Shown here piece by piece: positions 1 to 56,950 of a stretch of 64,000 bases of DNA (position 1 is its first letter; the number at the start of each line of letters is the position of its first letter). The notes beneath the pieces are model-generated. The model did not search any database, was not told the DNA's origin, and saw only the letters and a list, made by a program, of their open reading frames with translations. This DNA is from Betaproteobacteria bacterium. Its GTDB lineage: Bacteria; Pseudomonadota; Gammaproteobacteria; Burkholderiales; Rhodocyclaceae. The stretch lies in assembly GCA_016709965.1 (NCBI GenBank), contig JADJLT010000003.1, forward strand, positions 48,005-112,004, read 5' to 3'. The position numbers and the translations under genes are program-made.

Positions 1-3000
1 CTACTATCAGGCTGCCTCCCTGTGTCAGGGCGCCAAGCGTGCCCGTAGCCGAGAATAGGTCCTGGGCGTTGGTGCCGCCGTTGCGCGTGAGCGTCAGCGT
101 CGCACCATTAAAATTGTTGGCGGCACTGAGTTCCGCGTCGGTGATGGTGACATCGGCATCGAGCACGACCGCCGCAGCATTCTCGGTATAAGTCGGCGTG
201 CCGTTGAGGTTGGAGAAGAACGGTGCATCATTGACCGGGGTGATGCTGACGGCCACCGTATCGGTGTCGGTCATCGTCATGTCGCTGGCGAGGGTGGCGA
301 TTTCGATAGCGCTGAGCGCGCGATTGTAAACGCGCGCTTCGTCGATCAGTCCTTGGAAGTTGAAGTTTGGCTGGCCATTCCCGTGGGTGCCGATGAAGGT
401 TGTGGTGCCCTGCGTGTAGCTGATCGAATCGGCCGTGCTGATCTGGGCGACCAGGGTGCCGTCGAGATACAAGGCCGTCGCATTGGCTGTGTCATTGAAG
501 CTAAATGCTACATGGTGCCAGCCAGTGCCGGCCAGGACGGTATTGTAGGAGGTGCCAACCCAGGTGATGCCGTTGTAATACCCGCCGATCATGGCTCCGC
601 CAGCATCGAGGCGCAGCAAAACATTGTCACCCAGAGAGATGACTTCGGCACCGGACGTATCGGCAGCGGTCAAGTTAACCCAGGCAGCAATGGTCACGTT
701 GGCTGGTGCGCCGAAAGTGCCGGTAATCTGCAGGTTGCTGTTGGCGGTGCCGTCCAGTGACACAACCTTGCCGCGCGTCCCGTCTACGACGCTCGTGGCT
801 CCGACCACAGCGGCCATGTTGCCGGCTGCCGGACTGCTGTCATTGCCCAGGAAGGCGCTGTCGAAGGTGTAATGGCCGAGGAGGCTGGTGTCAATGTCCA
901 GACTCAATAGTACGGCGTCCTTGGTTGCCAGAGTTAGCGTGGCGTTGCCGTTGTAGTTGGCGGTCGGGCTGTAGCTCAGGCCATTGAGCGCGGTATTGAT
1001 CGCGCTGGCGGTGCCGCGGAAGGTCATTGTCGCGTCGCTGCTGCCATCGCCGCTGACAAATGTCAGTCCGCCGGTGCTGGCCAGAGTCAGTGTGCCGTTG
1101 GTGACGCTGAGCGTAACTTGATTGTTTACTCCGCCGGCGTCTATATCCGTGATTGAGATCGCATTGCCGTTGGCAGAGGAAAATACCGTGGCGGTGTCCT
1201 CGTTGGTGCTTTGAGCACCCGGCACGCTGTTGACTGGTGGATCGTTAACCGCAGTCACGCTGACATCGACGACATCGGTGGCGCTGGAAAAGGCGGAGGA
1301 GCCGCCATTGGTCGAAGTCGTCACCTTGGTCCCGGCCGTGCCGCTGGTCTGATCCCAGGCGCGAAGAGTAAGGGCCGAAGAGGAAGAACCGTTGTAGTTG
1401 GCGGCCGGCGAGAAATACAGGCGCGTACTGGCGTTGTTGGCGAGCAGTAGCGACGAGGTGGCGTTGACTGTGCCGACAGTCGTCCAGTTGGTGCCACCGT
1501 TGGTGGTGTAGTACCAGCTGCCATTGGTCTCATTGCTGGCGACCAGGGCAATGCCATTCACGGCACCGCTATCCACATCGCTGATGCCGCCGGTGAAGGC
1601 GCTGAGCAGTGAGACGACTGCCCCGGATGGCACGCCGGCATCCTCAGCGACGGTCAGGGAAAGTGCGGTGTCGGCGAGAATTGGGGCGTCGTTGACGGCA
1701 GTGACATTGAAGGTAAAGGTGTTGGGTGTCGGATCGAGATCGACACCGCCATTGCTGGTGCCGCCGTCGTCCTGAACCTGGAAGGTGAAACTGGCATAGG
1801 CAGCGCCATTCGCATTCGCGACCGGCATGAAAACCAGCTTGCTGGCCGCGATGTCGGCGGCGGTGATCGTCTGGCCTGCGGTCACTGCCGCGCCGGATAG
1901 CGTCAGGCTGCCTGCCGTTGGCAGGGTCGAGATCTTTACAGCGAGAAGATTGTTGGCCGGACTGTCGCTAGGGTCTGAGAAGCCAAAATCTGCGGTGCTG
2001 AATATGTGGCTCGCATCCTCCAGAATCGTTTGCGTTTTGTTGGTGCCGCTTGGCGCGTTATTTGGCGCAACCGCAGTGACATTCTGCGCGAATTCGGAGG
2101 TGTCAGTAAAAGTTGTATAGCTGGCGTTGGCCTTGGTTGCAGTGGCGGAGACGTACTGGCCTGCCGCGACCGAGACCGATAATGTAGTATTGAACGTTGC
2201 GTTGCCGCTGCCGTTGGTGTTTACATTGGCGTAACCGAGATAGGTCCGACCTTCGCCGTATCCGGTGCCATCCGCCGACGAATTTGAGAAAAACTCGATG
2301 CGGTAGTAACCGGAGGCAGTGCTGTTGAGTGAGCCGGCAATGACAATCGTGCTGCCATTTGTCGTCGCGCCAATTAGCGCCGGGAAGTTCTGCAGGTTGT
2401 TGGCGCCGCTATCTGCGTCGCCAGCATCGTTGGTCGTGACCCCATTATTGCCGAGGTCTATCCCCAAACCCGTATTGCCGTAGATCGAATTCGTGAGAAT
2501 CTGGATGTTGCCCGGATCCGCCAAGACCGCAACACCCGCGCCCGTGTTGCCGGCGATGGTGTTGCCCTGGCTTGCGCCGGTGCCGCCAATAAGTACGTTG
2601 CTCGAACCGCCCGCCTCGAAGATGCCGGCGGTGGATGCTCCGCCGCCATTACCCAAGGTGACCGTCCCCGTGGCGTCCAGACCGATGATGTTGCCCTGGA
2701 TCGTGGCACCGTTGGCATACAGATAGATGCCACCTCTGGAAGCGCTCCAACTGGTGTTGGTGTTGCCAGAGATCACGTTGTTCAGGATGCTGGTGTTGGA
2801 AGCGGCATAGTCGATTACCACGCCGAAACCACCGTTTGACACCGCTGCCGTACCAGCCGCATTGGTGCCCAGGTAATTGCCCTGGATAATGTTGTTGGTG
2901 GTGGCGCCAGCTTGGGCTGAGACGATCACCCCGTACTGCGTATTGCCCGAGATGACGTTGCGAGCAGCAGCGGTAGCACCGCCAATGGTATTGCCTGAGG

Positions 3001-5521
3001 CGCCGGTATCAATCATTACGCCGGTTTCGCCATTGGCGATGGCGGCGGTGCCGGCAGCGTTGACGCCGATGTAGTTGCCGGCGACGGTGTTGCCGGTGGC
3101 TGATGCGCTGGTGATTTCGACGCCGGAAAGACCATTGCCGGAGATGATATTGCGCGAACCGGCGCTGGTGCCGCCCACGGTATTGTTTGCCGAGGCGAGA
3201 GCAATACCCAGCCCGGAATTGGCAATGGCTCCGGTGCCGGTCGCGTTGGTGCCGATGTAGTTGCCGAGGATGAGGTTGCCGGTGGCCCCCGCGCCACTGA
3301 CGTTGATACCGTCGAAGCTGTTGCCGGAGATGATGTTTCGGCTGGCGGCGGTGGTCCCGCCGATCGTATTGTTGGCGGAACTGGCGATGACGATACCGAA
3401 ACGGTTGGCAGCGGCTGCCGTACCGGCGGCATTGGTGCCGATATAGTTGCCCTCGATAAGGTTACCGCCACCGGTGATCATATAGATGCCGTAGTGGCCG
3501 AAATTTTCAATTACCAAGCCGCGCACGGTGCTGCCACCTACGGTAATGCTCAGACCATCCGCCGAATTCGGGGCATTGATGCCATTGATGACGATCAGCG
3601 GTGTGCCGGCATAGCCCGGCTGAGTCCAGCCGTCGATCACGACTGCATTGGTGATGCCGGGCAGGGCCGTTGCGCCGAGCGTGATCGTCTGCACGCCGCC
3701 ACCTGCGATATTGAAGGCGATGACATCCGCCCCGCCCGAGCCATTGGCGGTATTGTTTGCCGCAGTGATTGCTTCGCGCAGACTGATCTTTCCGTCGGCG
3801 CCCTTGTTGGCCATGAGGCTGGCAATACTGGTGACCGTGCCGTCGACCGTATCGCTCGCTGTGTCGACGTAAAGCGTGTTGATCGTGTCGTTGTCAGTAT
3901 TGCTCAGACTGATGTCGCTGGCATTTAGCCCGTTGTAGCTTGCGTCGGCGCTGCTCGCTGCAGCGGTGATGACACTGTAGGCGATGTTGCCATCGATAAA
4001 ACTGTCATCGACACCGGTCACGGTGACTGTTTGCGGTGTGCTCCAATTGGCTGTCGTGAAGGTCAGGCTGCTGGTTGACAGCGTACCTTCGCTGCTGTCG
4101 GAGGAGCTCAGGGCAATCGTGACATTCGCCGTTGGGGCCTTGTCGAGAACCACGTTAAAGGTGGCCGTGCCGCCGGCTTCGGTCGTGGTCAGTCCACTGG
4201 TGGGGGTGACGGTGATGCCAGCTGCAGTCTTCATTGACACCGCAGCGATTTCCCATTGCACTGATCCACTCAGATTGCTGCTCATCACGACGCTGGCGGC
4301 GCCTGCTTCAAGAGTGGCGCCGCCACCCATCGTGCTGTTGGTTTGCGACCAGTATGAAGTTTGCCCTGCACCGGGGGTAGCACTGGTGGCTGGACTGTTT
4401 CTCCAATACAAAACGTCTATGACCTGTTCACCGGCGGCACTGGATGCAGTCACTGAAGCGGTGGTGCCGGTCCCCGTTGCGCTGACGAAGGTGCCGAATG
4501 CAGTGCCTATGGTCTGGGCAACGCCATTGAACGTGCTTGCACCGCCAGCAGCGGCGGTTGTCCCTGAAAATGACGCCACCACATTGGCCGTTCCGACAGT
4601 GGGGTTGATCAGCGCCCAGAGTTCGACCGCATGATTGCCCGTGCCGCGACCGATCTGGGTAAGGGCGACACCGCCGTAGGTAACCGAGGAAGCCGGTGCG
4701 CCCAGTCCGTCGAGGGCGAGCTCGACAACCAGTACCCGGTTGCTGCCGGCGCTGACAGTGTGGGACCAGGTGAGGCTGGTGGCGCCGGTTGTCTGGGTGG
4801 ATGTGACGGTGCCATTGCTGGTGATGGCCAGCGTGCCAGCCCACTGGGTTGGTTCGGTAGTGCCAGCAACGCTCTGTGTTTCGATGCTGCCAAATTTGTA
4901 TTCGAACTGCCAGTTGCCGCCTTGCGCGGCATTGCCGGTCTTGTCCGAACTCGCGGCAACGTCAGCGCCGGTCAGTGCGCCCAGGCGGGCGACGAAGGCT
5001 TGTCCGTCAGCCGTGCTGGCAACATCGCAACCGTAGAGCAGGAGGTCGGCATTGCCATTGAGGGCCGTTTGCCAACCCTGGATTTGAGCGGCGCGAGTAG
5101 TCAGCATCGCACCGTCTAGCTGAGTCGTGCCCAGCTGCAGCGTGCCGGCGCTGCCGTGCGAGATGATGTGGATGGCGTCGAGGTCATCGCGGCTGGCCAG
5201 TGCTGCGCTAATCTGGTCGATACCGTCGCGGCTGGCATCGATCAGTACGACATCGAGTTTGTTTTTTCCGGCGGCAGCTTCGATATCGCTGACCAGGGTT
5301 TCCCAGTGGTCGACACTGGTGTCGACGAATACGATTCCGCGCCGAGCGGCCTCGATCTGGCTGCTTTCCGCCAGATTGCTGAGGTTTGCGTTGTTCGTCG
5401 GTGCAATCTGGCGAACCTCGGCGGTGTCGAGCAGATGGGCGCCGGTCAGGGTGGCGAGGTCAGCCGAGAAGAGAATGCGCGGTTCCAGTTCCTCGACAAC
5501 CGGCCGGTGGCGCCGACTCAT
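1..5521 (-). CDS. Giant secreted repeat protein: DUF4347-type N-terminal head, Ig/cadherin-like modules, right-handed beta-helix (PbH1) block, LamG-like lectin domain. The 3' end lies outside the window; more than 1840 aa are visible.
   Basis: The complement ATG at 5521 gives MSRRHRPVVEELEPRILFSADL, the LEPRILFSA signature of DUF4347 heads. The frame (first codon base = 1 mod 3) contains none of the listed minus ORFs and spot translations at several sites found no stop; it is absent from the ORF track, which fits a frame with no stop in the window. Hand translation shows GNYIGTNAAGTAA..NNTIGG..RNIISGN coils, VNDAP module junctions, and LLGHYTFDSAFLGND ... NVTIAAWVNL (LamG-like) near 300-900. 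Confidence 0.85.
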   Translation of the reverse strand, partial: MSRRHRPVVEELEPRILFSADLATLTGAHLLDTAEVRQIAPTNNANLSNLAESSQIEAARRGIVFVDTSVDHWETLVSDIEAAAGKNKLDVVLIDASRDGIDQISAALASRDDLDAIHIISHGSAGTLQLGTTQLDGAMLTTRAAQIQGWQTALNGNADLLLYGCDVASTADGQAFVARLGALTGADVAASSDKTGNAAQGGNWQFEYKFGSIETQSVAGTTEPTQWAGTLAITSNGTVTSTQTTGATSLTWSHTVSAGSNRVLVVELALDGLGAPASSVTYGGVALTQIGRGTGNHAVELWALINPTVGTANVVASFSGTTAAAGGASTFNGVAQTIGTAFGTFVSATGTGTTASVTASSAAGEQVIDVLYWRNSPATSATPGAGQTSYWSQTNSTMGGGATLEAGAASVVMSSNLSGSVQWEIAAVSMKTAAGITVTPTSGLTTTEAGGTATFNVVLDKAPTANVTIALSSSDSSEGTLSTSSLTFTTANWSTPQTVTVTGVDDSFIDGNIAYSVITAAASSADASYNGLNASDISLSNTDNDTINTLYVDTASDTVDGTVTSIASLMANKGADGKISLREAITAANNTANGSGGADVIAFNIAGGGVQTITLGATALPGITNAVVIDGWTQPGYAGTPLIVINGINAPNSADGLSITVGGSTVRGLVIENFGHYGIYMITGGGNLIEGNYIGTNAAGTAAAANRFGIVIASSANNTIGGTTAASRNIISGNSFDGINVSGAGATGNLILGNYIGTNATGTGAIANSGLGIALASANNTVGGTSAGSRNIISGNGLSGVEITSASATGNTVAGNYIGVNAAGTAAIANGETGVMIDTGASGNTIGGATAAARNVISGNTQYGVIVSAQAGATTNNIIQGNYLGTNAAGTAAVSNGGFGVVIDYAASNTSILNNVISGNTNTSWSASRGGIYLYANGATIQGNIIGLDATGTVTLGNGGGASTAGIFEAGGSSNVLIGGTGASQGNTIAGNTGAGVAVLADPGNIQILTNSIYGNTGLGIDLGNNGVTTNDAGDADSGANNLQNFPALIGATTNGSTIVIAGSLNSTASGYYRIEFFSNSSADGTGYGEGRTYLGYANVNTNGSGNATFNTTLSVSVAAGQYVSATATKANASYTTFTDTSEFAQNVTAVAPNNAPSGTNKTQTILEDASHIFSTADFGFSDPSDSPANNLLAVKISTLPTAGSLTLSGAAVTAGQTITAADIAASKLVFMPVANANGAAYASFTFQVQDDGGTSNGGVDLDPTPNTFTFNVTAVNDAPILADTALSLTVAEDAGVPSGAVVSLLSAFTGGISDVDSGAVNGIALVASNETNGSWYYTTNGGTNWTTVGTVNATSSLLLANNASTRLYFSPAANYNGSSSSALTLRAWDQTSGTAGTKVTTSTNGGSSAFSSATDVVDVSVTAVNDPPVNSVPGAQSTNEDTATVFSSANGNAISITDIDAGGVNNQVTLSVTNGTLTLASTGGLTFVSGDGSSDATMTFRGTASAINTALNGLSYSPTANYNGNATLTLATKDAVLLSLDIDTSLLGHYTFDSAFLGNDSSPAAGNMAAVVGATSVVDGTRGKVVSLDGTANSNLQITGTFGAPANVTIAAWVNLTAADTSGAEVISLGDNVLLRLDAGGAMIGGYYNGITWVGTSYNTVLAGTGWHHVAFSFNDTANATALYLDGTLVAQISTADSISYTQGTTTFIGTHGNGQPNFNFQGLIDEARVYNRALSAIEIATLASDMTMTDTDTVAVSITPVNDAPFFSNLNGTPTYTENAAAVVLDADVTITDAELSAANNFNGATLTLTRNGGTNAQDLFSATGTLGALTQGGSLIV
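2440..3660 (-). repeat. Coding tandem periodicity of about 186 bp (62 aa, two beta-helix coils) inside the giant protein
   Basis: Three consecutive plus-strand shadow ORFs (2877-3074, 3075-3260, 3261-3446) are 186-198 bp and have near-identical starts. The minus-frame translation repeats GNYIG(T/V)NA.GT...N..G..I....NNTIGG....RN.ISGN. Confidence 0.6.
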
Positions 5522-5603
5522 GCTGAGGCCCGTTTCTGCTGGTCAGCCCGGCGCTCGCCGTTGATCAGGGCGAGCGGCTTTGAGGCGCGTCGCTCTCCAT
5601 CGC

Positions 5604-6962
5604 TCACAGCAGGGTGCGCTCCTGAACAATCAGCCAGCGTCCGGCTTGCTTGCGCCAGAGCAGTGCCTTGTGGACGGTTTCGGTGAAATCTCCGGCCTGG
5701 TAGTGCTGCTCGAAGGTGGTCTTAACCTCGTTGGGCGTCGGGCTCGTGGTTTGGAGTTGCTCGATGCTCAGCGTGATCGGCTCGGGCCGTGCCAGGCGCT
5801 GCTGCCGTTCTTCGGCCCATACTTCCCGGCTGGGGTGGTGCGTTGGTTGGAAGTTGCCGGCATAAAAGGCGAGATAGCGCTCGACCTGTTTACTCGCCCA
5901 GGCTTTGCGCCATTGTTCGACCAGTTCACTGACGGCTTCGCCCGGCGACTTGCTGGTGGCCTTGGCGAGAGGTTTGCTGGCTGGCGGCGCCGATTTGAGC
6001 GCCGGCTTGGGGCTTGTATCGCTGGCCTTGGGCGGTGCAACAGCCGGGACGGAAATTTCCGGTTTTGGCTCTTTTTTCGGGTTGACCGCAGCAATGGCTG
6101 GCGAGGCTGCTGTCAGTGGTGGATTCGTCGCGCTGGCACTGATTTTTGCGAAATCAGCCTTGCAGCGCAGGCCGGCGGGTAGTGTGTGCGTCGGGTTGTC
6201 GAGGCGGAGCAGGGTGCGGAAGGTGTTGCTGGCCGGATCGATGACCTTGTCGACACGGGTGACCTGGGCGCGGACAGTGCCAGCCCCCGGCAGTTCGGGC
6301 TGAATGGAGGCGCTGTCGCCGGGTGCGATCTGGCCGTAGAGGCTGATGGGAACGACCACCTGAACACGCAGCGGGTCAATTTGTGCCACGCGCAGGATTG
6401 CTTTTTCCTCGACGCGTTCGCCCGGGGCCAGGTAGCGTTCGGTGACGACGCCGTCAAAGGGGCTGATGATCGAGCGCTGACTCAGCAGAGCGCGCGAGTA
6501 GTCCACTTCATTGCTGGCGACGCGGCGGTTTTCACGCGCTTGTTCCAATTTCTGGCGAGTAACTTCGGCATCGGCGCGGCTTTGGTCCAGGGCGTTGTGC
6601 GAAATGAAGTTCCGCTTGAACAGGTCTTCGTTGCGCGCCAGTTGCTGGGCAGAAAATCGGGCGGCGGCTTCGGCGGCGTGAACCTCGCCCTCCGCTTCTT
6701 GCCGCGCCTTGGCCAGAGCGACGGCTGCGCGCTCGGATTGCGCTTTGAGGACGGCCAGAACCTGGCCTTTCTTGACCATGTCGCCACGTTCGACGGGAAT
6801 GGATTCGATAATGCCCACGACCTGACTGCCGATATCAGCCGTCCGCTCGGCCTCAATCAGGCAGCCCAGCGGCTGCGCCGCGTGGGCGCTGCCGACAACC
6901 AAGGCGACAAGACCGAAAAGCTGCAGCGCTCGGCGACGCAGGTGGTCTGGTGGCGAAATCAT
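5604..6962 (-). CDS. Periplasmic adaptor (MFP/HlyD-RND adaptor family) fused through a Pro/Lys/Ala-rich linker to a C-terminal NTF2/SnoaL-like (Cds6-type) domain
   Basis: 452-aa ORF with a signal-like N-terminus, LQLFGLVALVVGSAHA. Adaptor motifs: GQVLAVL, coiled-coil segment, IISPFDGVVTERY, RVQVVVP. The linker is aa ~270-335. The C-terminal module reads WRKAWASKQVERYLAFYAGNF...GRWLIVQE. Confidence 0.8.
   Translation of the reverse strand: MISPPDHLRRRALQLFGLVALVVGSAHAAQPLGCLIEAERTADIGSQVVGIIESIPVERGDMVKKGQVLAVLKAQSERAAVALAKARQEAEGEVHAAEAAARFSAQQLARNEDLFKRNFISHNALDQSRADAEVTRQKLEQARENRRVASNEVDYSRALLSQRSIISPFDGVVTERYLAPGERVEEKAILRVAQIDPLRVQVVVPISLYGQIAPGDSASIQPELPGAGTVRAQVTRVDKVIDPASNTFRTLLRLDNPTHTLPAGLRCKADFAKISASATNPPLTAASPAIAAVNPKKEPKPEISVPAVAPPKASDTSPKPALKSAPPASKPLAKATSKSPGEAVSELVEQWRKAWASKQVERYLAFYAGNFQPTHHPSREVWAEERQQRLARPEPITLSIEQLQTTSPTPNEVKTTFEQHYQAGDFTETVHKALLWRKQAGRWLIVQERTLL
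6055..6095 (-). repeat. Dispersed CGGTCAAC/A-tract repeat, copy c5, in-frame inside the adaptor linker
   Basis: The minus strand reads ATTGCTGCGGTCAACCCGAAAAAAGAGCCAAAACCGGAAAT, nearly identical to intergenic copy c2. It is translated as IAAVNPKKEPKPEI. Confidence 0.8.
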
Positions 6963-7153
6963 GTGGTGAGTTTCATTTTGCTTGAGGTGACAGACACAAT
7001 TTTCAACGCGCCGGGTTATGTAGGCTGTCGAATATTTCCGAATTGAGACATATTTTACATTTTAAGTACACGCAAGCTGGGCGTCGTCTTAATTACGGCA
7101 AAAACGCCGCAGTCTTGAGTTTGCATGTCCATAGCAGGGTGAATCCTTAGCGT

Positions 7154-9127
7154 TCATTCTTGAGTCGCCGAAAAAGCCAGTTGTCGATTTTGCTGTTTTA
7201 TCTGCGCTAGCAGCCGTCGGCGCAACAGGGCGTCGTGACTTTCCCGCGCTCGTTGTGGCCAGGCAAAGAGCGCGGCCAGCAGGCGCGGTGAGTTGATCGG
7301 GCAGCGTCTGGCCAGCCAACGACGCAATCCGGCGGGCAGGGTGCTGCGCAACAGGTGGCTGTCGAGTGACAGCCAGGTTTCAACGCTGCCCGGATCGCCC
7401 TGCCGGGCGCATCGCCCGATCAGTTGCCGGTCGATGCGGCGAGCATCGTTGAGCTGGCAGTTGATGATGTGCAGGCCGCCACGTTCGGCTACTTCGGGCG
7501 CTAACAGAATATCAGTGCCGCGACCGGCCATGTTGGTTGCCACCGTGACCCGTCCGGCTTGGCCAGCGTGGGCGACGATGGCGGCCTCCTCGCTGTCGTT
7601 GCGGGCATTGAGCAGCAAGTGGGCAATGCCGGCTGCCTGCAAGTGCCGGGCGAGCGCTTCGGAGTCGAGGACAGATTCCGTGCCGATCAGCACCGGGCGC
7701 CCGGCGTCGATCATTTCCCGGATGCGGACGCAAACCGCTGGCCACAGGCTGGCGTGATCGGTAAACAGGCGCGGCGGCAGGGTCACGCGGGCCGATGGTC
7801 GGCGCAGCGGAACACGGCAAACGGCCAACCCGTAGGTGGCGAACAGCTCGTCCCGTGCCTCGTGCAGGGTGCCGCTCAATCCACCGAGGCGAACGTAACG
7901 CGGGAAGAAGCGTTGAAAACTGGTGGCGGTCAGCGGTGCCGCCGGCAAAGTGGGCGTGCAGCCCTCTTTCAATTCGACCAGTTGGTGCAGGCCTTGTGAC
8001 CAGGCGCGGCCCGGCGCCGTGCGTCCGGTGTTGAGGTCGATGATGTGCACGGCATTGTCGGCGACCAGGTAGTCACGATCGCGCTGCAGGGCATGCAGCG
8101 CGACGAGGGCGATGGTGACCATCGCCTCGCGATGCGTGCGGTTGTGCCAAGGCCGGCTCAGCCAGCCGGTGCCTTTTTCAATACGCTTTTTTCCTTGCGC
8201 CGTCAGCAAGGCATGCTCTGCCCGGGCGTCCAGTATGAAGTCCTCACCGCTCTTTAGGCCGCGGGCGAGGGCCAGTGATTCTTTGAAAAAAGCGTCTTTT
8301 TCCGGGTTGACCGCAGCATCCGACAAAATCAGTGGCACGCGGGCTTCATCGATCAGGATGCTGTCGGCTTCGTCGATGATGCCCAGACAGAAGCCGCGCA
8401 GGGTAGTCGGCCGCGCTTTGCCGAGCAGGCGGTCGGTGTGCCAGCGCAGGCCCTCGGCACCCGGCACCATGCGGTCACGCAGACTGTCAAAAACCAGCTC
8501 CTTGGCCGTCGCATACACGATGTCGGCGGCGTAGGCGATGCTTCGCTCGGCGGGCGTAGCCGCCTCGGTGATGTAGGCGACTGACAGCCCGAGCATCGCG
8601 TAAAGCGGGCTGAGCGCTTCGGCATCGCGGTGGACGAGGTAATCGTTGACCGTCATGACATGGACCGGCATGCCGGCCAGCGCACCGCAGGCCGCCGCCA
8701 GCGCGACTGTCAGGGTTTTCCCTTCGCCGGTGGCCATTTCCGCCAGGCTGCCGTCGAGCACGATGCGGGCACCGATCAGTTGCACATCAAAAGGTCGTCG
8801 TCCGAGGCATCGCTGGCTGCATTCGCCGAGGATGGCGAAGGCCTCGGCAAGTAGCGTTTCCGGTAGCGCGGAGTTGCGCAAACGTTGGCGGATGCGGCGT
8901 ATGCGTTCAGTCAGCGCTGCATCGTCAAGTGACTGAAGTGGCGCTTCAAACTGTCGAACCCTGGCCACAAACTGCGGAAAGGCAGCTTCGCTCCGGCGTC
9001 GGCTCAAGGGCACGGCAAGTTGTTGCAGCCAGCGCTCAAGGCGAGGCAGCTCGGACCATGGGCGACGATTTTCCGGGTATGGCCCCCAGACCGGTCCGGG
9101 GACTGGCAAGGGGAGAGATTTCATCAT
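7154..9127 (-). CDS. SecA-like DEAD-motor ATPase (NBD1, shortened preprotein-crosslinking domain, NBD2) lacking most of the helical scaffold, the wing domain and the C-terminal tail
   Basis: 657 aa. SecA signatures present: FDVQLIG, MATGEGKTL (Walker A), VMTVNDYLVHRD, IIDEADSILIDEARVPLILS, TNMAGRGTDI, GGLHII...RRIDRQLIGRCARQGDPGS. Only about 90 aa follow the last motif. The start overlaps the upstream stop (ATGA at 9124-9127). Confidence 0.85.
   Translation of the reverse strand: MMKSLPLPVPGPVWGPYPENRRPWSELPRLERWLQQLAVPLSRRRSEAAFPQFVARVRQFEAPLQSLDDAALTERIRRIRQRLRNSALPETLLAEAFAILGECSQRCLGRRPFDVQLIGARIVLDGSLAEMATGEGKTLTVALAAACGALAGMPVHVMTVNDYLVHRDAEALSPLYAMLGLSVAYITEAATPAERSIAYAADIVYATAKELVFDSLRDRMVPGAEGLRWHTDRLLGKARPTTLRGFCLGIIDEADSILIDEARVPLILSDAAVNPEKDAFFKESLALARGLKSGEDFILDARAEHALLTAQGKKRIEKGTGWLSRPWHNRTHREAMVTIALVALHALQRDRDYLVADNAVHIIDLNTGRTAPGRAWSQGLHQLVELKEGCTPTLPAAPLTATSFQRFFPRYVRLGGLSGTLHEARDELFATYGLAVCRVPLRRPSARVTLPPRLFTDHASLWPAVCVRIREMIDAGRPVLIGTESVLDSEALARHLQAAGIAHLLLNARNDSEEAAIVAHAGQAGRVTVATNMAGRGTDILLAPEVAERGGLHIINCQLNDARRIDRQLIGRCARQGDPGSVETWLSLDSHLLRSTLPAGLRRWLARRCPINSPRLLAALFAWPQRARESHDALLRRRLLAQIKQQNRQLAFSATQE
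8295..8318 (-). repeat. Dispersed CGGTCAAC/A-tract repeat, copy c6 (5' half only), in-frame in the SecA-like gene
   Basis: The minus strand reads TGCTGCGGTCAACCCGGAAAAAGA, encoding AAVNPEKD directly after the DEAD-box segment. Confidence 0.65.
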
Positions 9128-11301
9128 CGAGACGTGCTTGGGCTGGCTGGCATCATCGGTGGCGCGCCACTGAACTGCTTGAGGAAAACCTGCGCGATCC
9201 GACGATAAAGCTGCGTGGCCAGCGGCGCATAGCCGTGGTCGAAGCGCACCCAGGCTCGTTCGCCGACATGCTTCAGCTCATCGTCGGCCAGTTTCAAGTC
9301 GACCAGAAAGACAGATTCTTGCAAACGCCGGCCATTTTCGTCACGTGGATCAGTCAGGTAAGGTCCGCCGCCACGGTCGCCGAGTGCCGCGCTGGGCAAT
9401 TCGCGGCTGGCGGCCGGGGTGTCGGCCTGAACGCTTGCCGCCAACGGCCGGCCGGGCATTTCAGGCAGGCGTACCTCGGCCGATCGGGTGTGCTGCTGAA
9501 CGAGGGAAATATCCTTCTCCGGCACGGCCGCGCGAATCACTGCCAAGCCATCGGCCAGCACATAGCCCATGGGCTCGCCATTGCGAATGAAACGGCCGGG
9601 CAGGTCGGTCTGTCGGGGCATCACCAGGCGGCCATCGACCCGGGCGCGGATCTCGAGGTCGCCGAGTTTGGCTTGGGCGCGGGCCAGTTCGGCTTCGGTC
9701 TTCTCGATGACTTCGGCCTGATTCTGGGCACCCTCGGGATCCCTGAGAAGCAGGCGGTAACGTTCGGCTTGCAAGCCGATCAGGCGGCTTTCAAGTTTTT
9801 CCTGTTGTACCTGTAGCTCGGGATTCTCGAGGCGGACAATCAGCTCGCCAATGTGGACCTGGCTACCATCCTTGACCGGCAACTCACTGACGAAGCCATC
9901 CACCTCGGGGCGAATCTGCGCCTTGTCCGGCAACCAGACGATACCGGGAGCAACAGTGCTGTAGGGCAGCGGCAGTGCAAAGATCAGCAAGGCCGGAACC
10001 GCCAGCAAAACGGCCAGCCGGCGGCGCGTGCGCGCCATTTCGTTGCCTGGCGTTGCACTGGCCAGCGATTGGGTGAAGCCACGCCAAAGCGGCAGGGCGA
10101 TCATGGTTGCGGCGAAGTAGATGGCGGCCACGCCGGCGGCGAAGAGCCAGAGCCCGGCCAGCCAGAACAGAATGGTCAGCGTGATCAGCAGCCGGTACGC
10201 CAGGGAAAGCGGCGCGTAGGCCAGCAGCCATTTACGTTCGCCGTGGCCCATCTGCGGAGTTTCCGAGGGCAGGCGCAGGAGGTGCCGGTGCAACAGGTGG
10301 CGCCAGTAGGCATTGCTGCGTGAGGCAAGGTTGGGCAGGTCGAGGACGTCGCAGAGGACGTAGTAGCCATCAAAGCGGAGCAACGGATTTCCGTTGAAGA
10401 GCAGTGTCGACAGGCTGCCGATAAAGAACAGCGCGAAGCCGATGTCGCGCATTGTTTCGCCACTGAGTTGCGACCAGATCAGCAGGCCGATGGCCGCGAT
10501 GAGCAGTTCGATCATGATGCCGGCAGCGCTGACCAGCGCGCGTTGCTGGCGGCCGAGAAAACCTGATGCGGCCGAGGCGTCGACATAGGGAGCCGGCATC
10601 AGGACGAGCAGCGCCACGCCTGCCTCATGCACGTCTCCACCCCAGCGACGTACGGCCAGCCCGTGCCCGGTTTCATGGAGCGCCTTGATGAGGGGAAAGG
10701 TCAGCCAGAGCAGGCCGAGATAGGCGGGTGAGTGAAGGCGAGTCGAACCGAACGCAAAAAGTTCGCGCCACTCGCCGGCCGCCGACAAGGCTGCGAACCC
10801 GATGAGCAGCAGCCAGAGCCAGAAGGTGACGGGCTGAAACAGCAGTTTGCCCAAGCCGTCCAGACGCGCCAGCAGCGCGTTCGGGTCGCCCAACGGTAGC
10901 CGGAAGGCCAGCGGATTGACGAGGCTGCGCAGGCGTCGCTGCCTTGATTCGTCGCGGCGCTGGAAGAGGCTGTCGACATCGGGAATGCGGTCGAATTGAA
11001 TGAGCTCTGCTTCGTTCAGGCTGACCAGCAGATCGACCACTTCATCCTGCGTCGAGGCGTCATCGGCATGCATCTGAAGCACGCCGTCCCAGACTTGTTG
11101 TACGTTGCGCAGGCCGTTGCAGCGGCCGATGAAGTGGTAGGCGGCATCGTTGATCCGGTGATGGCGGCCGCTGGCTTCGTCGGTCAGGACGAACCAGCGC
11201 TGGTCGCGCCAGCGCTTGCGCTGGATGCGGACTTGCGGGCGCAGGCGCGGCTTGAGGTCGGCGACTCGATACCAGCGCGCGCTGAACAGCGTCGCGGTCA
11301 C
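9124..11301 (-). CDS. Three-part membrane protein: N-terminal PqqD/RRE-like domain, polytopic M50 (site-2 protease) core, C-terminal HlyD-type periplasmic adaptor domain
   Basis: 725 aa. HETGH (HExxH) and NPLLRFDGYY (NPxxxxDG) lie in a hydrophobic core. The N-terminus FIGRCNGLRNVQQVWDGVL...DEVVDLLVSLNEAELI resembles PqqD-type peptide-binding domains. The C-terminal ~270 aa have a lipoyl-like hairpin plus coiled coil (VDGFVSEL...ELIVRLENPEL...ARVDGRLV). Confidence 0.8.
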   Translation of the reverse strand: MTATLFSARWYRVADLKPRLRPQVRIQRKRWRDQRWFVLTDEASGRHHRINDAAYHFIGRCNGLRNVQQVWDGVLQMHADDASTQDEVVDLLVSLNEAELIQFDRIPDVDSLFQRRDESRQRRLRSLVNPLAFRLPLGDPNALLARLDGLGKLLFQPVTFWLWLLLIGFAALSAAGEWRELFAFGSTRLHSPAYLGLLWLTFPLIKALHETGHGLAVRRWGGDVHEAGVALLVLMPAPYVDASAASGFLGRQQRALVSAAGIMIELLIAAIGLLIWSQLSGETMRDIGFALFFIGSLSTLLFNGNPLLRFDGYYVLCDVLDLPNLASRSNAYWRHLLHRHLLRLPSETPQMGHGERKWLLAYAPLSLAYRLLITLTILFWLAGLWLFAAGVAAIYFAATMIALPLWRGFTQSLASATPGNEMARTRRRLAVLLAVPALLIFALPLPYSTVAPGIVWLPDKAQIRPEVDGFVSELPVKDGSQVHIGELIVRLENPELQVQQEKLESRLIGLQAERYRLLLRDPEGAQNQAEVIEKTEAELARAQAKLGDLEIRARVDGRLVMPRQTDLPGRFIRNGEPMGYVLADGLAVIRAAVPEKDISLVQQHTRSAEVRLPEMPGRPLAASVQADTPAASRELPSAALGDRGGGPYLTDPRDENGRRLQESVFLVDLKLADDELKHVGERAWVRFDHGYAPLATQLYRRIAQVFLKQFSGAPPMMPASPSTSR

Positions 11302-11304
11302 GTC

Positions 11305-13074
11305 CTACAGTCCCCAGCCGAACAATTGCAGGCGCAGCCAGTCAATGCCGCGATGAGCAAGGCGCCAGATCAGCGCACGGTTGTCGGCATCGACCCGGGC
11401 CACGCCCAGCATGCCGGGACGCAGACTGGGCGGGTCTTCGGTCAGTTTGGCTTCGACTTCGAAAATGTTGTTGCCATCGCGACTGACGGCGACCGGCACG
11501 ATACGCTCCACCGAGAAGCTCAGCGCCTCGCCGGGCAGCGCGGTCAACGCGAGATTGCCCTGGCGGCCGCTGGCGATGTCGCCGATGTCGCGTTCATCGA
11601 CGTCGAGCAGCAGGCGATGGCGTCCTTGCGGGGCGAGCGTCAGCAGTGTGTCGCCGCGCCGTACCGGGGAGCCAAGTGATTGGGTGAGGTCGCCCTGGAC
11701 GATGATGCCATCGCTCGGCGCAACGATGCGCATCCGGGCGAGTTGGCTGCGCACCAGGTCGAGCTGGGCCGAGGCTTCATTGGCCTTGGCGCGGCTGACC
11801 GAGAACGCGGCGCGGTCAGCCCGGGCCATGGCGGCGATGTAAGCATTTTCGTGCTGGGTAAATTCAGCCTGCCACTTGCTTTCTTCCAGGCGCAAATCCT
11901 GGTCGGCCATTTGCGCCAGCGTCTGTCCGGCTTTGACGATGTCGCCTGGACGAACGTTGGCTTCCTTGAGAAAGCCATCAGTTGGGGCAACCAGAACATG
12001 TTGTTCGGCACCTTCAATACGGGCGCCGGCCGTTACCTGGTAAGGCAGTGGTATCAGCAGCAAGGCAAGCAGGGTGAGCGCAAGGCCGCCAAGGGCCATG
12101 CGCGACAGGCGGGATTCGCCAGCGCGGAGCGTTTGCCGGAGCTGACTCAGCTTTTCGAAAAACCGCTGCACCAGCGAACGCTCGGCCTGACGACGCAGGG
12201 CGATGATGGGTGCAGCCAGCGCGGCCAGATGTTCACATTGGGTTACTTCGTTGCGACCGGGGGGCAGCGAGCCGAGGCGCTCCAGGGTCAGGATGCCGAT
12301 CATGCGGTCATCATGGACCATGGGCAGCGAACATAAACTGGTTCCTGCGCGGGCGGAAAATTCGGTGTGAGCGAGCAGGATATAGGGCGGGTCATCGGGG
12401 CGTGGTGGCTGGGTGAGCGTGGCGCCCTGGTCGGCGGCTTCTTCCATCGCCGCGGCCAGGCTGCGCAGCAATTCCTGCTTGTGTTCGAAGGTGGCATTGT
12501 GCGAAATGGCGCCAATCCGAATCTGGTCATCCTCAAGCAAGCCGAGGCTGACACGCTCGAAGCGGAAGGTGCCCGCCAGTTCGTTGACGAAGGCAACCGT
12601 CGCAGATTCCAGATTTTCCTTGCCGAGCAAGGCTGACTGCAGCCCAAGCAGGGTGGCTGCCGGCCCGCTGCTGAGGTCATTTGGTGCATGCAGCAGCTTG
12701 TCCAGCGTGTTCTTCAGGCTGCGCAGATCGTTCAGGTAACCCTGGGCGACGTTGTCGTTGCTGCTCTTCAGGCCGAGGGCCATGATGCAGGGGGCACCGG
12801 CATCGCCCAGCAGAACCTGGACAATGCGCTGCGGACCCTGATCGGTCAGCATGACGGGGGGGACGACGATGTCCTCGAGTTTCCGCTTGAGGGAGATGGT
12901 GGCCGCATCAATGAGCGGCAGGTTGACGTCGCTGCGCTCGGGCCATTCCGCCAGAATGCGGATGTTTTCGCCCGCCAGGCTGGCGCCGACCACGACACAG
13001 CCGGTAATGACCGCTGACTGGTTGCAGTAGTCTCGAAGCCAGCGTTGCAGGGAGGCCGTGTTGATATCGTTCAT
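11305..13074 (-). CDS. GAF-domain cytoplasmic sensor fused to one TM helix and a HlyD-type periplasmic adaptor domain
   Basis: 589 aa. GAF-like segment: FRFERVSLGLL...SLCSLPMVHDDRMIGILTLER. TM helix: LGGLALTLLALLLIPL. HlyD-like part: VAPTDGFLKEANVRPGDIVKAGQTLAQM, coiled coil, IVAPSDGIIVQGD. The stop lies 3 nt before the next start. Confidence 0.75.
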   Translation of the reverse strand: MNDINTASLQRWLRDYCNQSAVITGCVVVGASLAGENIRILAEWPERSDVNLPLIDAATISLKRKLEDIVVPPVMLTDQGPQRIVQVLLGDAGAPCIMALGLKSSNDNVAQGYLNDLRSLKNTLDKLLHAPNDLSSGPAATLLGLQSALLGKENLESATVAFVNELAGTFRFERVSLGLLEDDQIRIGAISHNATFEHKQELLRSLAAAMEEAADQGATLTQPPRPDDPPYILLAHTEFSARAGTSLCSLPMVHDDRMIGILTLERLGSLPPGRNEVTQCEHLAALAAPIIALRRQAERSLVQRFFEKLSQLRQTLRAGESRLSRMALGGLALTLLALLLIPLPYQVTAGARIEGAEQHVLVAPTDGFLKEANVRPGDIVKAGQTLAQMADQDLRLEESKWQAEFTQHENAYIAAMARADRAAFSVSRAKANEASAQLDLVRSQLARMRIVAPSDGIIVQGDLTQSLGSPVRRGDTLLTLAPQGRHRLLLDVDERDIGDIASGRQGNLALTALPGEALSFSVERIVPVAVSRDGNNIFEVEAKLTEDPPSLRPGMLGVARVDADNRALIWRLAHRGIDWLRLQLFGWGL

Positions 13075-13196: not shown

Positions 13197-14969
13197 TTAA
13201 TCAGTCATCGCAACGCCGTTGGCAAGCAGGGCGGCAAATTGATCGGGGGCCACTGCCGGGCTGAAAAGGAATCCCTGGCAGGTATCGCAGTGGTGCGTGC
13301 GCAGAAATTCAAGCTGCTGGCGGGTTTCGACGCCTTCGGCGACGATCTTCAGACCCAGCTGGTGCCCCATGGAGACGATGGCGGTGACAATGGCGGCACT
13401 GTGCTCGTCGCTATGGATGCCGGTGAGAAACGAGCGATCAATTTTCAGTTCGTGTAGTGGCAGGCGCTTCAGGTAGGCGAGTGAGGAATAGCCCGTGCCG
13501 AAATCATCCACCGAGAGTTCGATGCCCAGCGAGCGCAGTGTTTCCAGCGTGCTCAGGTGGCTGTTGATATTGTCCATGATCACGCTTTCGGTGATCTCGA
13601 CACTGATGCGTTGACCGTCGATGCCGTGGCGGATGAGTGTGGCGGAAAGTTCGTCGACGAAATTTTTCTGGCTGAACTGCGGTGACGAGATATTGATGGC
13701 GATGCGTGGCGGCTGGATGCCGGCATCTAGCCAGAGGCGGATCTGGCGGCTGGCGATATTCAATACCCGGTCGCCGATCCGGTTGATCAGGCCGGATTCT
13801 TCGGCCACCGGAATGAACTCGGCGGGGCTGACCAGGCCGCGAACGGGATGTTGCCAGCGGAGCAGGGCTTCGGCGCCGCAAATTTTGCCGGAGACGATAT
13901 CAACCTTGGGCTGGTAGGCGAGGTGGAATTGATCACCATCCAGGGCATGGCGGAGATCGGCCTCAAGGTTGAGGCGATGGATGGCGCGCTCGTTGAATTT
14001 TTGCGAGAAGAAGCGGAAGCCGTCACCGCCGGCCCGCTTGACGTCGTGCATGGCGTTGTTGGCGGCGGAGATGATTTCGTTGCTTGTCTTGCCGTCATTG
14101 GGGAAGACGGAAATCCCGATCGAGCAGGTGGAGATCAGCTCGTGGCCGCCCGTGGTGAACGGTGTCTTGACCATGTCAAGGATGCGCTGGGCTACGATGG
14201 CCGCACTGTCCGGCCGGTCTATGCCGCAGAGCAGGACGGTAAACTCGTTGCCGGCAAGGCGGGAAAGCATGATCGACTGTTCGCGGACATCCTGGCGGGC
14301 GACGATGTCGGTGTCGCGTATGCATGTGCCGAGATTTTTCGCGACGGCGCGCAGCAGGCGGTCGCCGTTTGCCCAGCCAAGCGCTTCGACAACTTTCTTG
14401 AAGCGGTCGAGGTCGACGTGGAGTACGGCGCCGAGGATGTTGTAGCGCTGCGAATACTTGATCGCCCAGTCGAGGCGGTCGGTATAGCGCTCGCGATTGG
14501 GCAGCCCGGTCAGGTCATCGTGATAGACGACAAGGTTGCGGTAGGCTTTGGCGGCCAGCGTGTTTTGCAGGCGCAGTTTCATCTCGCCCGCATCGACCGG
14601 TTTGTTCAGGATATCGTTGGCGCCTTGGCCGAGCACCCGCAGGCGGAGCGCGCGACTGTCGTCGGCGGTCAGGACGATGATCGGCAGATGTCGGTGCACG
14701 GAATTATTCCGTACCTGCTCAAGAATATCGCTGCCGTCGATGGTGACCAATACTTCGTTGTCGATGAGTACGAGGTCGATGTCCAGCTCGTACAGCAGGT
14801 CAAGGACGGAACCTGAGCCGACGATGGAGAGGGCGTTTCGATAGCCGGCCGAACGCAGAAAGTGGAGCATGATTTCGGCGCTGGCGTTATCGCGCTCAAC
14901 AATCAGGATGCAGGCGTTCAGAAACTCGGTCGAGCGTTCCGGCGAGGCGTTCCGGCGATCAAGATTCAT
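13197..14969 (-). CDS. Response-regulator receiver, degenerate GGDEF, and EAL phosphodiesterase
   Basis: REC: DLVLID...; PIIVLTA; NKP. The GGDEF motif is replaced by AGNEF (RLAGNEFTVLL) and there is no RxxD I-site. EAL motifs are intact (EALLRW, DDFGTGYSSL, KIDRSF). The ATG at 14969 is preferred over the TTG at 14999; the start is uncertain. Confidence 0.9.
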   Translation of the reverse strand: MNLDRRNASPERSTEFLNACILIVERDNASAEIMLHFLRSAGYRNALSIVGSGSVLDLLYELDIDLVLIDNEVLVTIDGSDILEQVRNNSVHRHLPIIVLTADDSRALRLRVLGQGANDILNKPVDAGEMKLRLQNTLAAKAYRNLVVYHDDLTGLPNRERYTDRLDWAIKYSQRYNILGAVLHVDLDRFKKVVEALGWANGDRLLRAVAKNLGTCIRDTDIVARQDVREQSIMLSRLAGNEFTVLLCGIDRPDSAAIVAQRILDMVKTPFTTGGHELISTCSIGISVFPNDGKTSNEIISAANNAMHDVKRAGGDGFRFFSQKFNERAIHRLNLEADLRHALDGDQFHLAYQPKVDIVSGKICGAEALLRWQHPVRGLVSPAEFIPVAEESGLINRIGDRVLNIASRQIRLWLDAGIQPPRIAINISSPQFSQKNFVDELSATLIRHGIDGQRISVEITESVIMDNINSHLSTLETLRSLGIELSVDDFGTGYSSLAYLKRLPLHELKIDRSFLTGIHSDEHSAAIVTAIVSMGHQLGLKIVAEGVETRQQLEFLRTHHCDTCQGFLFSPAVAPDQFAALLANGVAMTD

Positions 14970-15040
14970 CGGCAAGTGGCATGGGTGGGGTGGCGGCAAA
15001 TGAGGTACAGCATACCGCAGCGGCGCGCCGCGATTACAGC

Positions 15041-15161: not shown

Positions 15162-15440
15162 TCAGGTATTTCCCGCCTCGTAGGCGGACAGCGTGACCCC
15201 GGCGTGGCTGAGCATCTCGCGGATCGTCTTGATGTCGGTCTTGCTGCAGGTGCTGCTGTTGTGCGGATGGTGCAGGAATGCTTCGACCTTGTTCAAGGTG
15301 ATCTTGAAGCGGGCGCCATGTGACGGTTCGATGTCGGCGCCCAAGTGCTTGAGCAACGATTCGATTTCGCGCCAGTGGATATTGGCCGGTAGCGGGTCCT
15401 GGAAGATGCTGCGCATCAGGTGGTCATGCTTGTGACTCAT
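15162..15440 (-). CDS. Small HicA-like (YcfA/HicA fold) protein with no adjacent HicB-like partner
   Basis: 92 aa. The pattern LMRSIFQDPLPANIHWREIESLLKHLGA...HHPH...IKTIREMLSHAGV matches my memory of a HicA-family subclass. The assignment rests on motif recall only. Confidence 0.4.
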   Translation of the reverse strand: MSHKHDHLMRSIFQDPLPANIHWREIESLLKHLGADIEPSHGARFKITLNKVEAFLHHPHNSSTCSKTDIKTIREMLSHAGVTLSAYEAGNT

Positions 15441-44793: not shown

Positions 44794-44941
44794 GGCTCGC
44801 CAAAGCCAATGATCGACCACCTTATGGAAGCATACGTGCACACCGACCCCATTGGACCTTGCCAGCAATATCCTATGATAGTCGCAATTGGCAATACTCA
44901 CGAATGGTTATTTCCATATGGCATAGACATTTGCCTTTAAG

Positions 44942-56917: not shown

Positions 56918-56950
56918 TTCTAAACGCCCATTCTTTGTTTGGGGTGTTTC

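Follow-up and report, generated by a model that had tools for sequence, protein, structure and literature searches.

A conserved gene module uniting a short SecA paralogue, three HlyD-type adaptors and an M50-type protease with a giant LEPR-XLL/DUF4347 protein: a candidate export apparatus in Gram-negative bacteria

How might a protein of more than 1840 residues be brought to the surface of a Gram-negative cell when the genes beside it encode three HlyD-type adaptors, a membrane protease and an ATPase of the SecA type, and no pump? The question is raised by five genes on the minus strand of a 64,000-nucleotide stretch of DNA (the window) from a member of the Rhodocyclaceae deposited as Betaproteobacteria bacterium (GenBank assembly GCA_016709965.1, contig JADJLT010000003.1, positions 48,005 to 112,004). 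In order of transcription, and as identified from the table of open reading frames (ORFs) and from Pfam and NCBIfam profile searches, they encode a 589-residue GAF-HlyD protein (11305-13074); a 725-residue protein with a GTG start in which a PqqD-like domain, an M50 site-2-type metalloprotease and a HlyD adaptor are fused (9124-11301; M50-HlyD below); a 657-residue short SecA paralogue (7154-9127); a 452-residue periplasmic adaptor, recognised by the RND_mfp and Cds6_C models, that ends in an NTF2-like domain (5604-6962); and a giant protein starting with an ATG at 5521, the N-terminal 1840 residues of which are encoded before the frame runs off the start of the window (1-5521). On balance we favour the view that the locus specifies a dedicated envelope-spanning apparatus that exports and processes the adjacent LEPR-XLL/DUF4347 giant and probably regulates its display, by a mechanism that we infer. 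We regard it as highly probable that these genes act together, as a single functional unit, on behalf of the giant protein.

The same gene set was reached from homologues of the SecA, of M50-HlyD and of the DUF4347 protein alike, in metagenome-assembled genomes (MAGs) of Thiobacillus, Sterolibacteriaceae, Methylophilaceae and a deltaproteobacterium and on two long contigs. A further 80 loci came from an alignment-based scan of metagenomes, and scoring by tblastn with the window proteins gave 89 related loci in all, with M50-HlyD approximately 40-100% identical to that of the window; close relatives (L001, 91% identity) put the window among Azonexus-like Rhodocyclaceae. Given an M50-HlyD orthologue, GAF-HlyD was present at 85/85 evaluable loci, the short SecA at 75/78, the small periplasmic adaptor at 49 of 55 and the N-terminus of the DUF4347 giant at 40 of 43, although the loci include near-duplicates, so that these counts are not independent and overstate the independence of the evidence, which has to be held against our reading. 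The triad of GAF-HlyD, M50-HlyD and short SecA that the initial annotation had singled out is therefore syntenic well beyond the window. The module is found in Beta-, Gamma- and Deltaproteobacteria, including the complete genome of Piscinibacter sakaiensis (locus L007, CP182947), in one of two gene orders (GAF, M50, SecA, adaptor, giant; or M50, SecA, GGDEF-EAL, GAF, adaptor, giant). The junction between M50-HlyD and SecA, with a median gap of 26 nt, is intact in both, even where GAF-HlyD lies elsewhere in the cluster, and the flanks outside the module vary from locus to locus. In the window itself the sequence reads as an ATGA stop/start overlap at this junction (9127-9124), by which the two genes are translationally coupled, and as a 3-nt gap (TAG-gac-GTG, 11307-11299) between GAF-HlyD and M50-HlyD. 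Found again in this arrangement at dozens of loci, the five genes form a conserved unit and not a chance cluster.

The giant protein is the candidate substrate. Its residues 8-26 match the LEPR-XLL model (NF012209, 21.1 bits; cut-off 17), and the N-terminal peptide is near-invariant among the giants (EELEPRILYSAD). A leader motif, [RK]-x-[LVI]-[VI]-E-[EA]-[LI]-E-P-R-[IL]-L-[YF]-S-A-D, was present in all 40 module-linked giants with a recovered N-terminus; the window version is VVEELEPRILFSAD (5459-5500). No hydrophobic Sec signal peptide was found at the N-terminus, nor were there RTX (repeats-in-toxin) repeats, with zero GGxGxD motifs and no HemolysinCabind match in the 1840 residues. A variable linker of 40-60 residues separates the leader motif from DUF4347 (PF14252, 185.6 bits, 4829-5335), which is followed in the window protein by a weak beta-helix match, cadherin-like domains and LamG domains (Laminin_G_3, 72 bits; Cadherin_4, 26.0 bits with a cut-off of 25.1; below threshold, Beta_helix, 18.7 against 25.9, and Cadherin_3, 25.2 against 25.5). 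A DUF4347 protein of Nostoc has neither the leader motif nor the module.

DUF4347 is itself predicted to adopt a caspase-like, cysteine protease domain (CPD)-like (clan-CD-like) fold with a His-Cys dyad. His122 (encoded within 5153-5164) and Cys165 (within 5024-5035) are both invariant in 53 sequences; His118, Asp67 and Asp159 are invariant too, and the domain has a TGADVAAS motif. In the AlphaFold2 (AF2) model the core of the domain has a pLDDT of >90. In large toxins such as MARTX, TcdA and TcdB the CPD fold self-processes the protein, and by analogy DUF4347 may self-process the giant. More speculatively, the end of the leader motif (L-[LFY]|S-A-D) looks similar to Leu|small-residue sites of CPD-type domains. 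The best Foldseek match in the PDB was Tce1 of P. aeruginosa in an Hcp3 ring (9qpe_G, E = 3e-6), and the next-best structural matches were caspases and legumains, with low TM-scores (0.3-0.4). Tce1 (PA0256), which is loaded into Hcp3, is likewise a DUF4347 protein, and its published description is that of a putative cysteine protease whose His/Cys dyad resembles the one in the TcdB autoprocessing domain. Taken at face value, this match might mean that the giant travels as Tce1 does, as cargo of a type VI secretion system (T6SS), and that its export has nothing to do with the module. We consider this scarcely credible: Tce1, at 310 residues, fits an Hcp ring, while the proteins here run from roughly 800 to >5000 residues, no T6SS gene was seen in the annotated loci, and what is common to the two is a protease-like fold and not a delivery route. 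The giants resemble the toxin CPDs and Tce1 in having the DUF4347 fold with an invariant His and Cys at dyad spacing, and differ in that the domain belongs to a giant, adhesin-like protein and lies ~40-60 residues past an export-type motif at its N-terminus. DUF4347 serves both in a small T6SS effector (Tce1) and at the N-termini of giant surface proteins.

The C-terminus of the window giant lies outside the window, and this end of the protein is known from five complete homologues (L005, 11983-18678; L039, L041, L082 and L023). In them it consists of a conserved hydrophobic transmembrane (TM) helix, the motif LPAWRxIDPLPIL and an acidic tail. Compared with known C-terminal sorting signals, this element has no match in Pfam or NCBIfam; it might anchor the protein in the membrane, serve the M50 protease as substrate or act as a second signal for recognition.

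The only ATPase of the module is an unmistakable SecA homologue (SecA_DEAD 277 bits, SecA_PP_bind 77, P-loop_SecA 153). Its Walker A GEGKT (8714-8728), DEAD (8363-8374) and GRGTD (7511-7525, arginine finger) motifs are invariant in 28 homologues. The protein aligns to B. subtilis SecA over residues 29-552 only, with ~60 residues after that, and scores 494.5 bits against the NCBIfam SecA equivalog (NF009538/TIGR00963; cut-off 814), covering model positions 16-492 of 814. Against four SecA2 equivalog models it also stays below the cut-off (456 against 1085, 419 against 725, 407 against 930 and 333 against 1100). By these alignments it comprises NBD1, the preprotein cross-linking domain (PPXD), NBD2 (NBD, nucleotide-binding domain) and a stub of the scaffold helix, and lacks the helical wing domain, the two-helix finger and the C-terminal linker and metal-binding tail. 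This content, motor and PPXD with no C-terminal third, corresponds to that of the N68 fragment of E. coli SecA, which was made experimentally. In place of the canonical SecA N-terminus stands a family-specific motif with the consensus LPxPGLxWGxYPER (window version LPVPGPVWGPYPEN; N-terminal 45 residues, 8995-9127), in which P10, G11, G15, P18 and E19 are invariant in the 28 homologues and which may be a docking element. NCBI names some homologues 'prepilin peptidase' and others 'DEAD/DEAH box helicase' (P0013, P0017), names that do not fit and look like annotation errors.

It might be supposed that this protein is a dedicated motor of the SecA2 kind that hands the giant to the housekeeping SecYEG, with the adaptors and the M50 protease acting later, as periplasmic conduit to the outer membrane and in cleavage of the anchor or leader. 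Its PPXD and motor domains would suit such a role, Gram-positive bacteria have SecA2 systems devoted to large adhesins encoded next to them, no other inner-membrane channel is evident in the module and the C-terminal TM anchor of the complete homologues could be read as a SecYEG-type stop-transfer element. We nevertheless think it unlikely, since the parts by which SecA engages SecY (two-helix finger, most of the scaffold, wing domain) are gone, the N-terminus is replaced by the family-specific motif, the substrate has no hydrophobic signal peptide and the gene is coupled to M50-HlyD and not to Sec components. The known accessory Sec systems (SecA2/SecY2 of streptococci and staphylococci; SecA2 only in mycobacteria, Listeria and C. 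difficile) are alike in having a second SecA, apparently dedicated here too to a neighbouring large surface protein. They differ in that the hosts here are Gram-negative, that the SecA is coupled to membrane fusion protein (MFP) adaptors and an M50 protease, and that no SecY2, Asp or glycosyltransferase gene was found in the window or in nine Pfam-annotated loci. Known SecA2 proteins, moreover, largely keep the two-helix finger, wing and tail, and the serine-rich substrate there has an extended signal peptide. A parallel to a SecA working apart from the housekeeping enzyme may be the SecA-like domains that have been predicted to aid, in cis, the self-export of giant Omnitrophota proteins and actinobacterial giant toxins. 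These too are SecA-type ATPase modules distinct from housekeeping SecA, whereas the SecA here is a separate gene coupled to M50-HlyD, and HlyD or M50 partners are not described in those papers.

M50-HlyD, the partner to which the short SecA is coupled, has three parts: the PqqD-like domain (approximately 10996-11250), a polytopic membrane region (~9976-10860) and a MexA-like adaptor (~9223-9930). Its N-terminus, MTATLFSARWYRV, agrees with those of homologues. Pfam alone gives sub-gathering scores (Peptidase_M50 20.2, cut-off 27.2; PqqD 18.0, cut-off 23.4). The zinc-site motifs are HETGH (10663-10677) and NGNPLLRFDG (10366-10395), and HExxH and NxNPxxxFDG are invariant among homologues (H209, E210, H213, N303, N305, P306, F310, D311), including the distant Nitrospira protein. 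In the AF2 model they fall within helices predicted at 192-219 and 282-303 and within the stretch that comes next. By these sequence features the protein has the zinc site of an M50/site-2 protease (S2P), with the catalytic motifs intact. The N-terminal domain matches the PqqD structure 3g2b (profile E = 9e-5, chain residues 13-94 of 95) and is modelled as a three-stranded sheet (24-31, 34-41, 46-51) followed by three helices (52-58, 67-81, 85-97), which is the predicted architecture of a PqqD-like RiPP recognition element (RRE; RiPP, ribosomally synthesised and post-translationally modified peptide). The AF2 model as a whole (pLDDT 84) shows this domain, the membrane helices and an adaptor with a hairpin of 2x26 residues, and Foldseek matches the adaptor part to MexA, AcrA and MacA at E ~ 1e-13. 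The family has 3808 representatives at 50% identity clustering (E <= 1e-30), and the best 150 members are nearly all ~710-730 residues long with full-length matches.

The closest curated relatives of the RRE and M50 part are leader proteases of peptide natural products: daptide_HExxH (NF041824) gave 154 bits, with residues 18-409 aligned to model positions 1-369 of 379, and YydH/LiaK (NF058609) gave 32 bits. Together with weak matches to the NHLP bacteriocin HlyD model, this could suggest that the protein trims the leader of a small peptide, that the adaptors export the peptide and that the giant gene is a mere neighbour. None of these scores comes near its family cut-off (300, 225 and 156 bits, respectively), so that the protein is not a member of the daptide family, and no RiPP-modifying enzyme (radical-SAM or other), ABC (ATP-binding cassette)/C39 exporter or precursor gene is linked in the annotated loci. 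In the window, the 191-bp spacer between the short SecA and the small adaptor wholly contains ORFs of only 22 and 25 residues. The giant gene, on the other hand, follows the module at 40 of the 43 evaluable loci, and its conserved N-terminal peptide could itself be the leader. A RiPP or bacteriocin system is in our estimation very improbable. The initial annotation had entertained both a small peptide and the giant as substrate; the giant is favoured, on its linkage, its leader motif and its lack of a Sec signal, and a small peptide as the main substrate was rejected on the spacer ORFs and the absence of linked RiPP enzymes. What the leader proteases do share with M50-HlyD is homology over the whole PqqD-like and HExxH membrane protease region, which supports a cytoplasmic recognition domain presenting a peptide to a membrane active site; the difference is the fusion, here, to a MexA-like adaptor, with no RiPP enzyme or precursor linked. 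The client of this part of the module is likely to be the N- or C-terminus of the giant protein.

The other two adaptors also reach into the periplasm. In GAF-HlyD the GAF domain (~12202-12594, 25.2 bits; cut-off 22.4) belongs to an N-terminal region in the cytoplasm, which is followed by one TM helix (~12043-12099, its sole hydrophobic helix, at residues 326-344) and a periplasmic HlyD/MFP adaptor (~11377-12036; HlyD_3, 67.9 bits). The 452-residue adaptor has an N-terminal hydrophobic segment (signal peptide), an HlyD/MFP core (~6144-6857) and a Pro/Ala/Lys-rich linker leading to the Cds6_C NTF2-like domain (~5619-5930, 61 bits). Both pass the TIGR01730 RND_mfp model (95.7 and 141.3 bits; cut-off 94.9), and all three adaptors fall far below the cut-off of 208.65 of TIGR01843, the model specific to the HlyD of type I secretion systems (T1SSs), with 50, 33 and 28 bits. 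The NTF2 fusion occurs at only 3 surveyed loci (L004, L014, L015), namely two close relatives of the window and L004, which is ~60% identical. The namesake of Cds6_C, Csd6/HP0518 of H. pylori, is a peptidoglycan L,D-carboxypeptidase, and the domain might tether the small adaptor to the cell wall. Every domain call of the initial annotation was upheld by the profile searches: the truncated SecA-like ATPase by Pfam, NCBIfam and the B. subtilis alignment, and PqqD-like/M50-HlyD, for which Pfam would not suffice, by the daptide alignment, the invariant motifs, the 3g2b match and the AF2 model. Its two HlyD proteins are correct as far as they go; what it had listed apart as a third adaptor is also of HlyD type, which makes three.

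It had further claimed that no transporter accompanies these adaptors, and had named a canonical one encoded just outside as a partner that would overturn its reading. Among the window ORFs scanned, most of those of at least 220 residues and a few shorter ones, there is no efflux pump, no T1SS pump and no TolC-like outer-membrane efflux protein (OEP). To that extent the claim stands. The window does contain ftsY and ftsX (37584-40104, with ftsE presumed between them and unscanned) and the ammonium transporter gene amtB (56939-58153), which are far off, unrelated housekeeping genes. ORFs of 1071 and 404 residues, which by size could have been an RND (resistance-nodulation-division) pump and its adaptor, encode a hybrid histidine kinase and NamZ instead, and one of 483 residues, considered as a hidden pump part, encodes a pyridoxal-phosphate enzyme. 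At nine proteobacterial loci whose flanks were annotated with Pfam over 10 kb, no ABC, RND or MFS (major facilitator superfamily) pump is conserved, and no ABC or RND exporter or OEP is linked; MFS genes occur at 2/9 loci, on different sides. With neighbours that differ in this way, an overlooked transporter was not borne out as the partner. A tblastn search across the loci with the OEP of a Nitrospira locus gave no further match, a weak test as OEPs diverge.

A gene that does recur is one for a response regulator of cyclic di-GMP (c-di-GMP) turnover with REC, GGDEF and EAL domains (EAL 262 bits, GGDEF 120, Response_reg 58), encoded in the window at 13197-14999 on the minus strand. An orthologue stands beside or inside the module at 28/89 loci with an M50-HlyD orthologue, at times between module genes, and REC-GGDEF-EAL genes recur in this position at L005, L008, L023, L027, L091, L092 and L094, in some cases with hybrid histidine kinases that carry an Hpt domain. 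This suggests control of the module by c-di-GMP, and the REC-GGDEF-EAL protein of the window is likely to be its regulator.

Putting these components together, we propose the following. The cytoplasmic PqqD-like domain of M50-HlyD would bind the N-terminal EELEPRILYSAD peptide of the giant, a role suggested by its homology to the RRE-M50 leader proteases. The short SecA would dock on M50-HlyD, grip the unfolded chain and feed it, N-terminus first, across the inner membrane, where polytopic M50-HlyD and single-pass GAF-HlyD would together make up the passage as a complex. The three adaptor paralogues would form a periplasmic tube to a TolC-type channel encoded elsewhere (adjacent in the Nitrospira variant). 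The M50 site would remove the leader, cut the C-terminal anchor, or both; the cysteine protease-like DUF4347 would provide a second, self-processing or release step; and gating would fall to the GAF domain together with the GGDEF-EAL regulator encoded alongside. On this proposal a motor of the SecA type would stand in for the ABC ATPase and would power export by way of the adaptors. In its most specific form, that of a SecYEG-independent, SecA-derived ATPase threading giants through a protease/adaptor and sensor/adaptor complex, an MFP tube and an outer-membrane channel, with LEPR-XLL as secretion signal and release controlled by M50 and DUF4347, the module would be a new class of Gram-negative secretion system, a proposal that we advance tentatively.

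Several points weigh against this reading, beyond the near-duplicates among the loci. Function is assigned by guilt by association, from comparative genomics and structure prediction, and the peptide partner of the PqqD-like domain and the bonds cut by the two proteases are putative. No inner-membrane channel was identified in the module and no linked outer-membrane component in the proteobacterial loci, and neither S2P-type proteases nor MFP adaptors are known to conduct polypeptides. Six loci without an adjacent SecA (L049, L089, L091, L092, L094 and L013) keep M50-HlyD, the adaptors and the LEPR-type giant. A linked SecA is therefore not obligatory, and the SecA may be accessory or encoded elsewhere. 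A Cellvibrio MAG (L094, 4781-10786) has a full-length M50-HlyD orthologue (37% identity) and a LEPR-type giant in this arrangement, and several of the loci (among L049, L089, L091, L092 and L094) have genes for hybrid histidine kinases and REC-GGDEF-EAL proteins nearby. In the Nitrospira MAG (L013, 3985-11026) a TolC-like OEP gene adjoins genes for an adaptor, for M50-HlyD and for a DUF4347 protein, along with a second HlyD gene that is frameshifted. There M50-HlyD apparently lacks the PqqD part, in a MAG that is frameshifted, and the start of the DUF4347 gene was mis-called, the motif LEQRLMFDAA lying upstream of the called start; a joint absence of RRE and leader in this locus, which had been considered, is void for these reasons. 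Because of the SecA-less variants, the core of the module is M50-HlyD, the adaptors and the LEPR/DUF4347 substrate, with the short SecA nearly constant in Beta-, some Gamma- and Deltaproteobacteria.

These variants also bear on a reading in which the giant is exported by an unlinked system and the module is a device for its retention and release: the GAF domain would sense c-di-GMP or another signal, the M50 protease would cut an anchor or leader and the SecA-like ATPase would serve as an unfoldase or extractor. Loci without a linked SecA would be easily accommodated, as would the linked GGDEF/EAL and hybrid kinase genes, the intact S2P-type active site and the conserved C-terminal TM anchor of the complete homologues, and there is a ready analogy in the control of LapA by LapD and LapG. 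How a protein of >1840 residues would leave the cytoplasm with neither a Sec nor an RTX/T1SS signal would stay unexplained, however, and three hairpin-bearing, MexA-like adaptors are difficult to account for if there is no trans-periplasmic conduit. The OEP gene adjacent in Nitrospira also speaks against it. We rate this reading as rather improbable, and a little below the delivery to SecYEG considered above.

Returning to the favoured reading of a dedicated export apparatus, the system that the module would most resemble in its working is the T1SS for giant adhesins (LapA/LapBCE with LapD/LapG, SiiE, MpIBP). Both have periplasmic adaptors of the HlyD/MFP family and a giant, repetitive surface protein with cadherin- or Ig-like domains encoded beside the machinery. 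In both, genes of c-di-GMP turnover lie close by, an element at the N-terminus is under proteolytic control (predicted, for the module) and the outer-membrane channel is often unlinked. The module nevertheless appears to fall outside the definition of a T1SS: a SecA-type ATPase is found in place of an ABC transporter, which is absent from the window ORFs scanned (ftsX apart) and from the annotated flanks of nine loci; the conserved signal is N-terminal, there is no RTX, and complete homologues end in a TM anchor and not in a C-terminal secretion signal; and there are three adaptor paralogues, one of them fused to an intramembrane M50 protease. We found no description of this module in open-access papers and bioRxiv, and within that literature this agrees with the initial annotation, which knew of no described system of this composition. 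On gene content, the module seems to match no described secretion system.

Were this reading correct, the 3808 representative M50-HlyD proteins would point to an additional and widespread secretion route for giant surface proteins, in hosts of environmental and technical importance that include relatives of Accumulibacter, Azonexus, Thiobacillus, Methylophilaceae and Cellvibrio and the PET (polyethylene terephthalate)-degrading Piscinibacter (Ideonella) sakaiensis. The widespread and unexplained LEPR-XLL motif would become a candidate secretion signal. A SecA motor would have been recruited away from SecYEG, which bears on how SecA moves polypeptides, and an RRE/S2P protease would be tied to protein export, beyond peptide natural products or signalling. 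The module lends itself to testing, with clear motifs to mutate in each component and a named, culturable species whose complete genome carries it.

Two spacers interrupt the cluster in the window, the AT-richer one of 191 bp between the short SecA and the small adaptor (6963-7153) and one of 82 bp between the small adaptor and the giant gene (5522-5603). Both were reproduced from the ORF table and the sequence, together with the gene coordinates, the 3-nt gap and the ATGA overlap of the initial annotation. The longer spacer is possibly an internal promoter or regulatory region; a scan of it for promoter and terminator consensus sequences gave results no better than its shuffles, and no convincing peptide gene was found in it. 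A 76-residue minus-strand ORF (7089-7319) overlaps it and enters the end of the SecA gene out of frame.

Upstream the module is flanked by housekeeping genes (thiL, nusB, rib genes, YceI), and between thiL and the GGDEF-EAL gene there is a small ORF resembling a HicA toxin (15162-15440, 28 bits; cut-off 27). Unlinked to the module, the window also encodes a 649-residue dynamin-family GTPase (31010-32959), a hybrid histidine kinase with an N-terminal sensor domain like a phosphonate-binding protein (41686-44901) and an 868-residue protein with multiple Kelch repeats (50668-53274).

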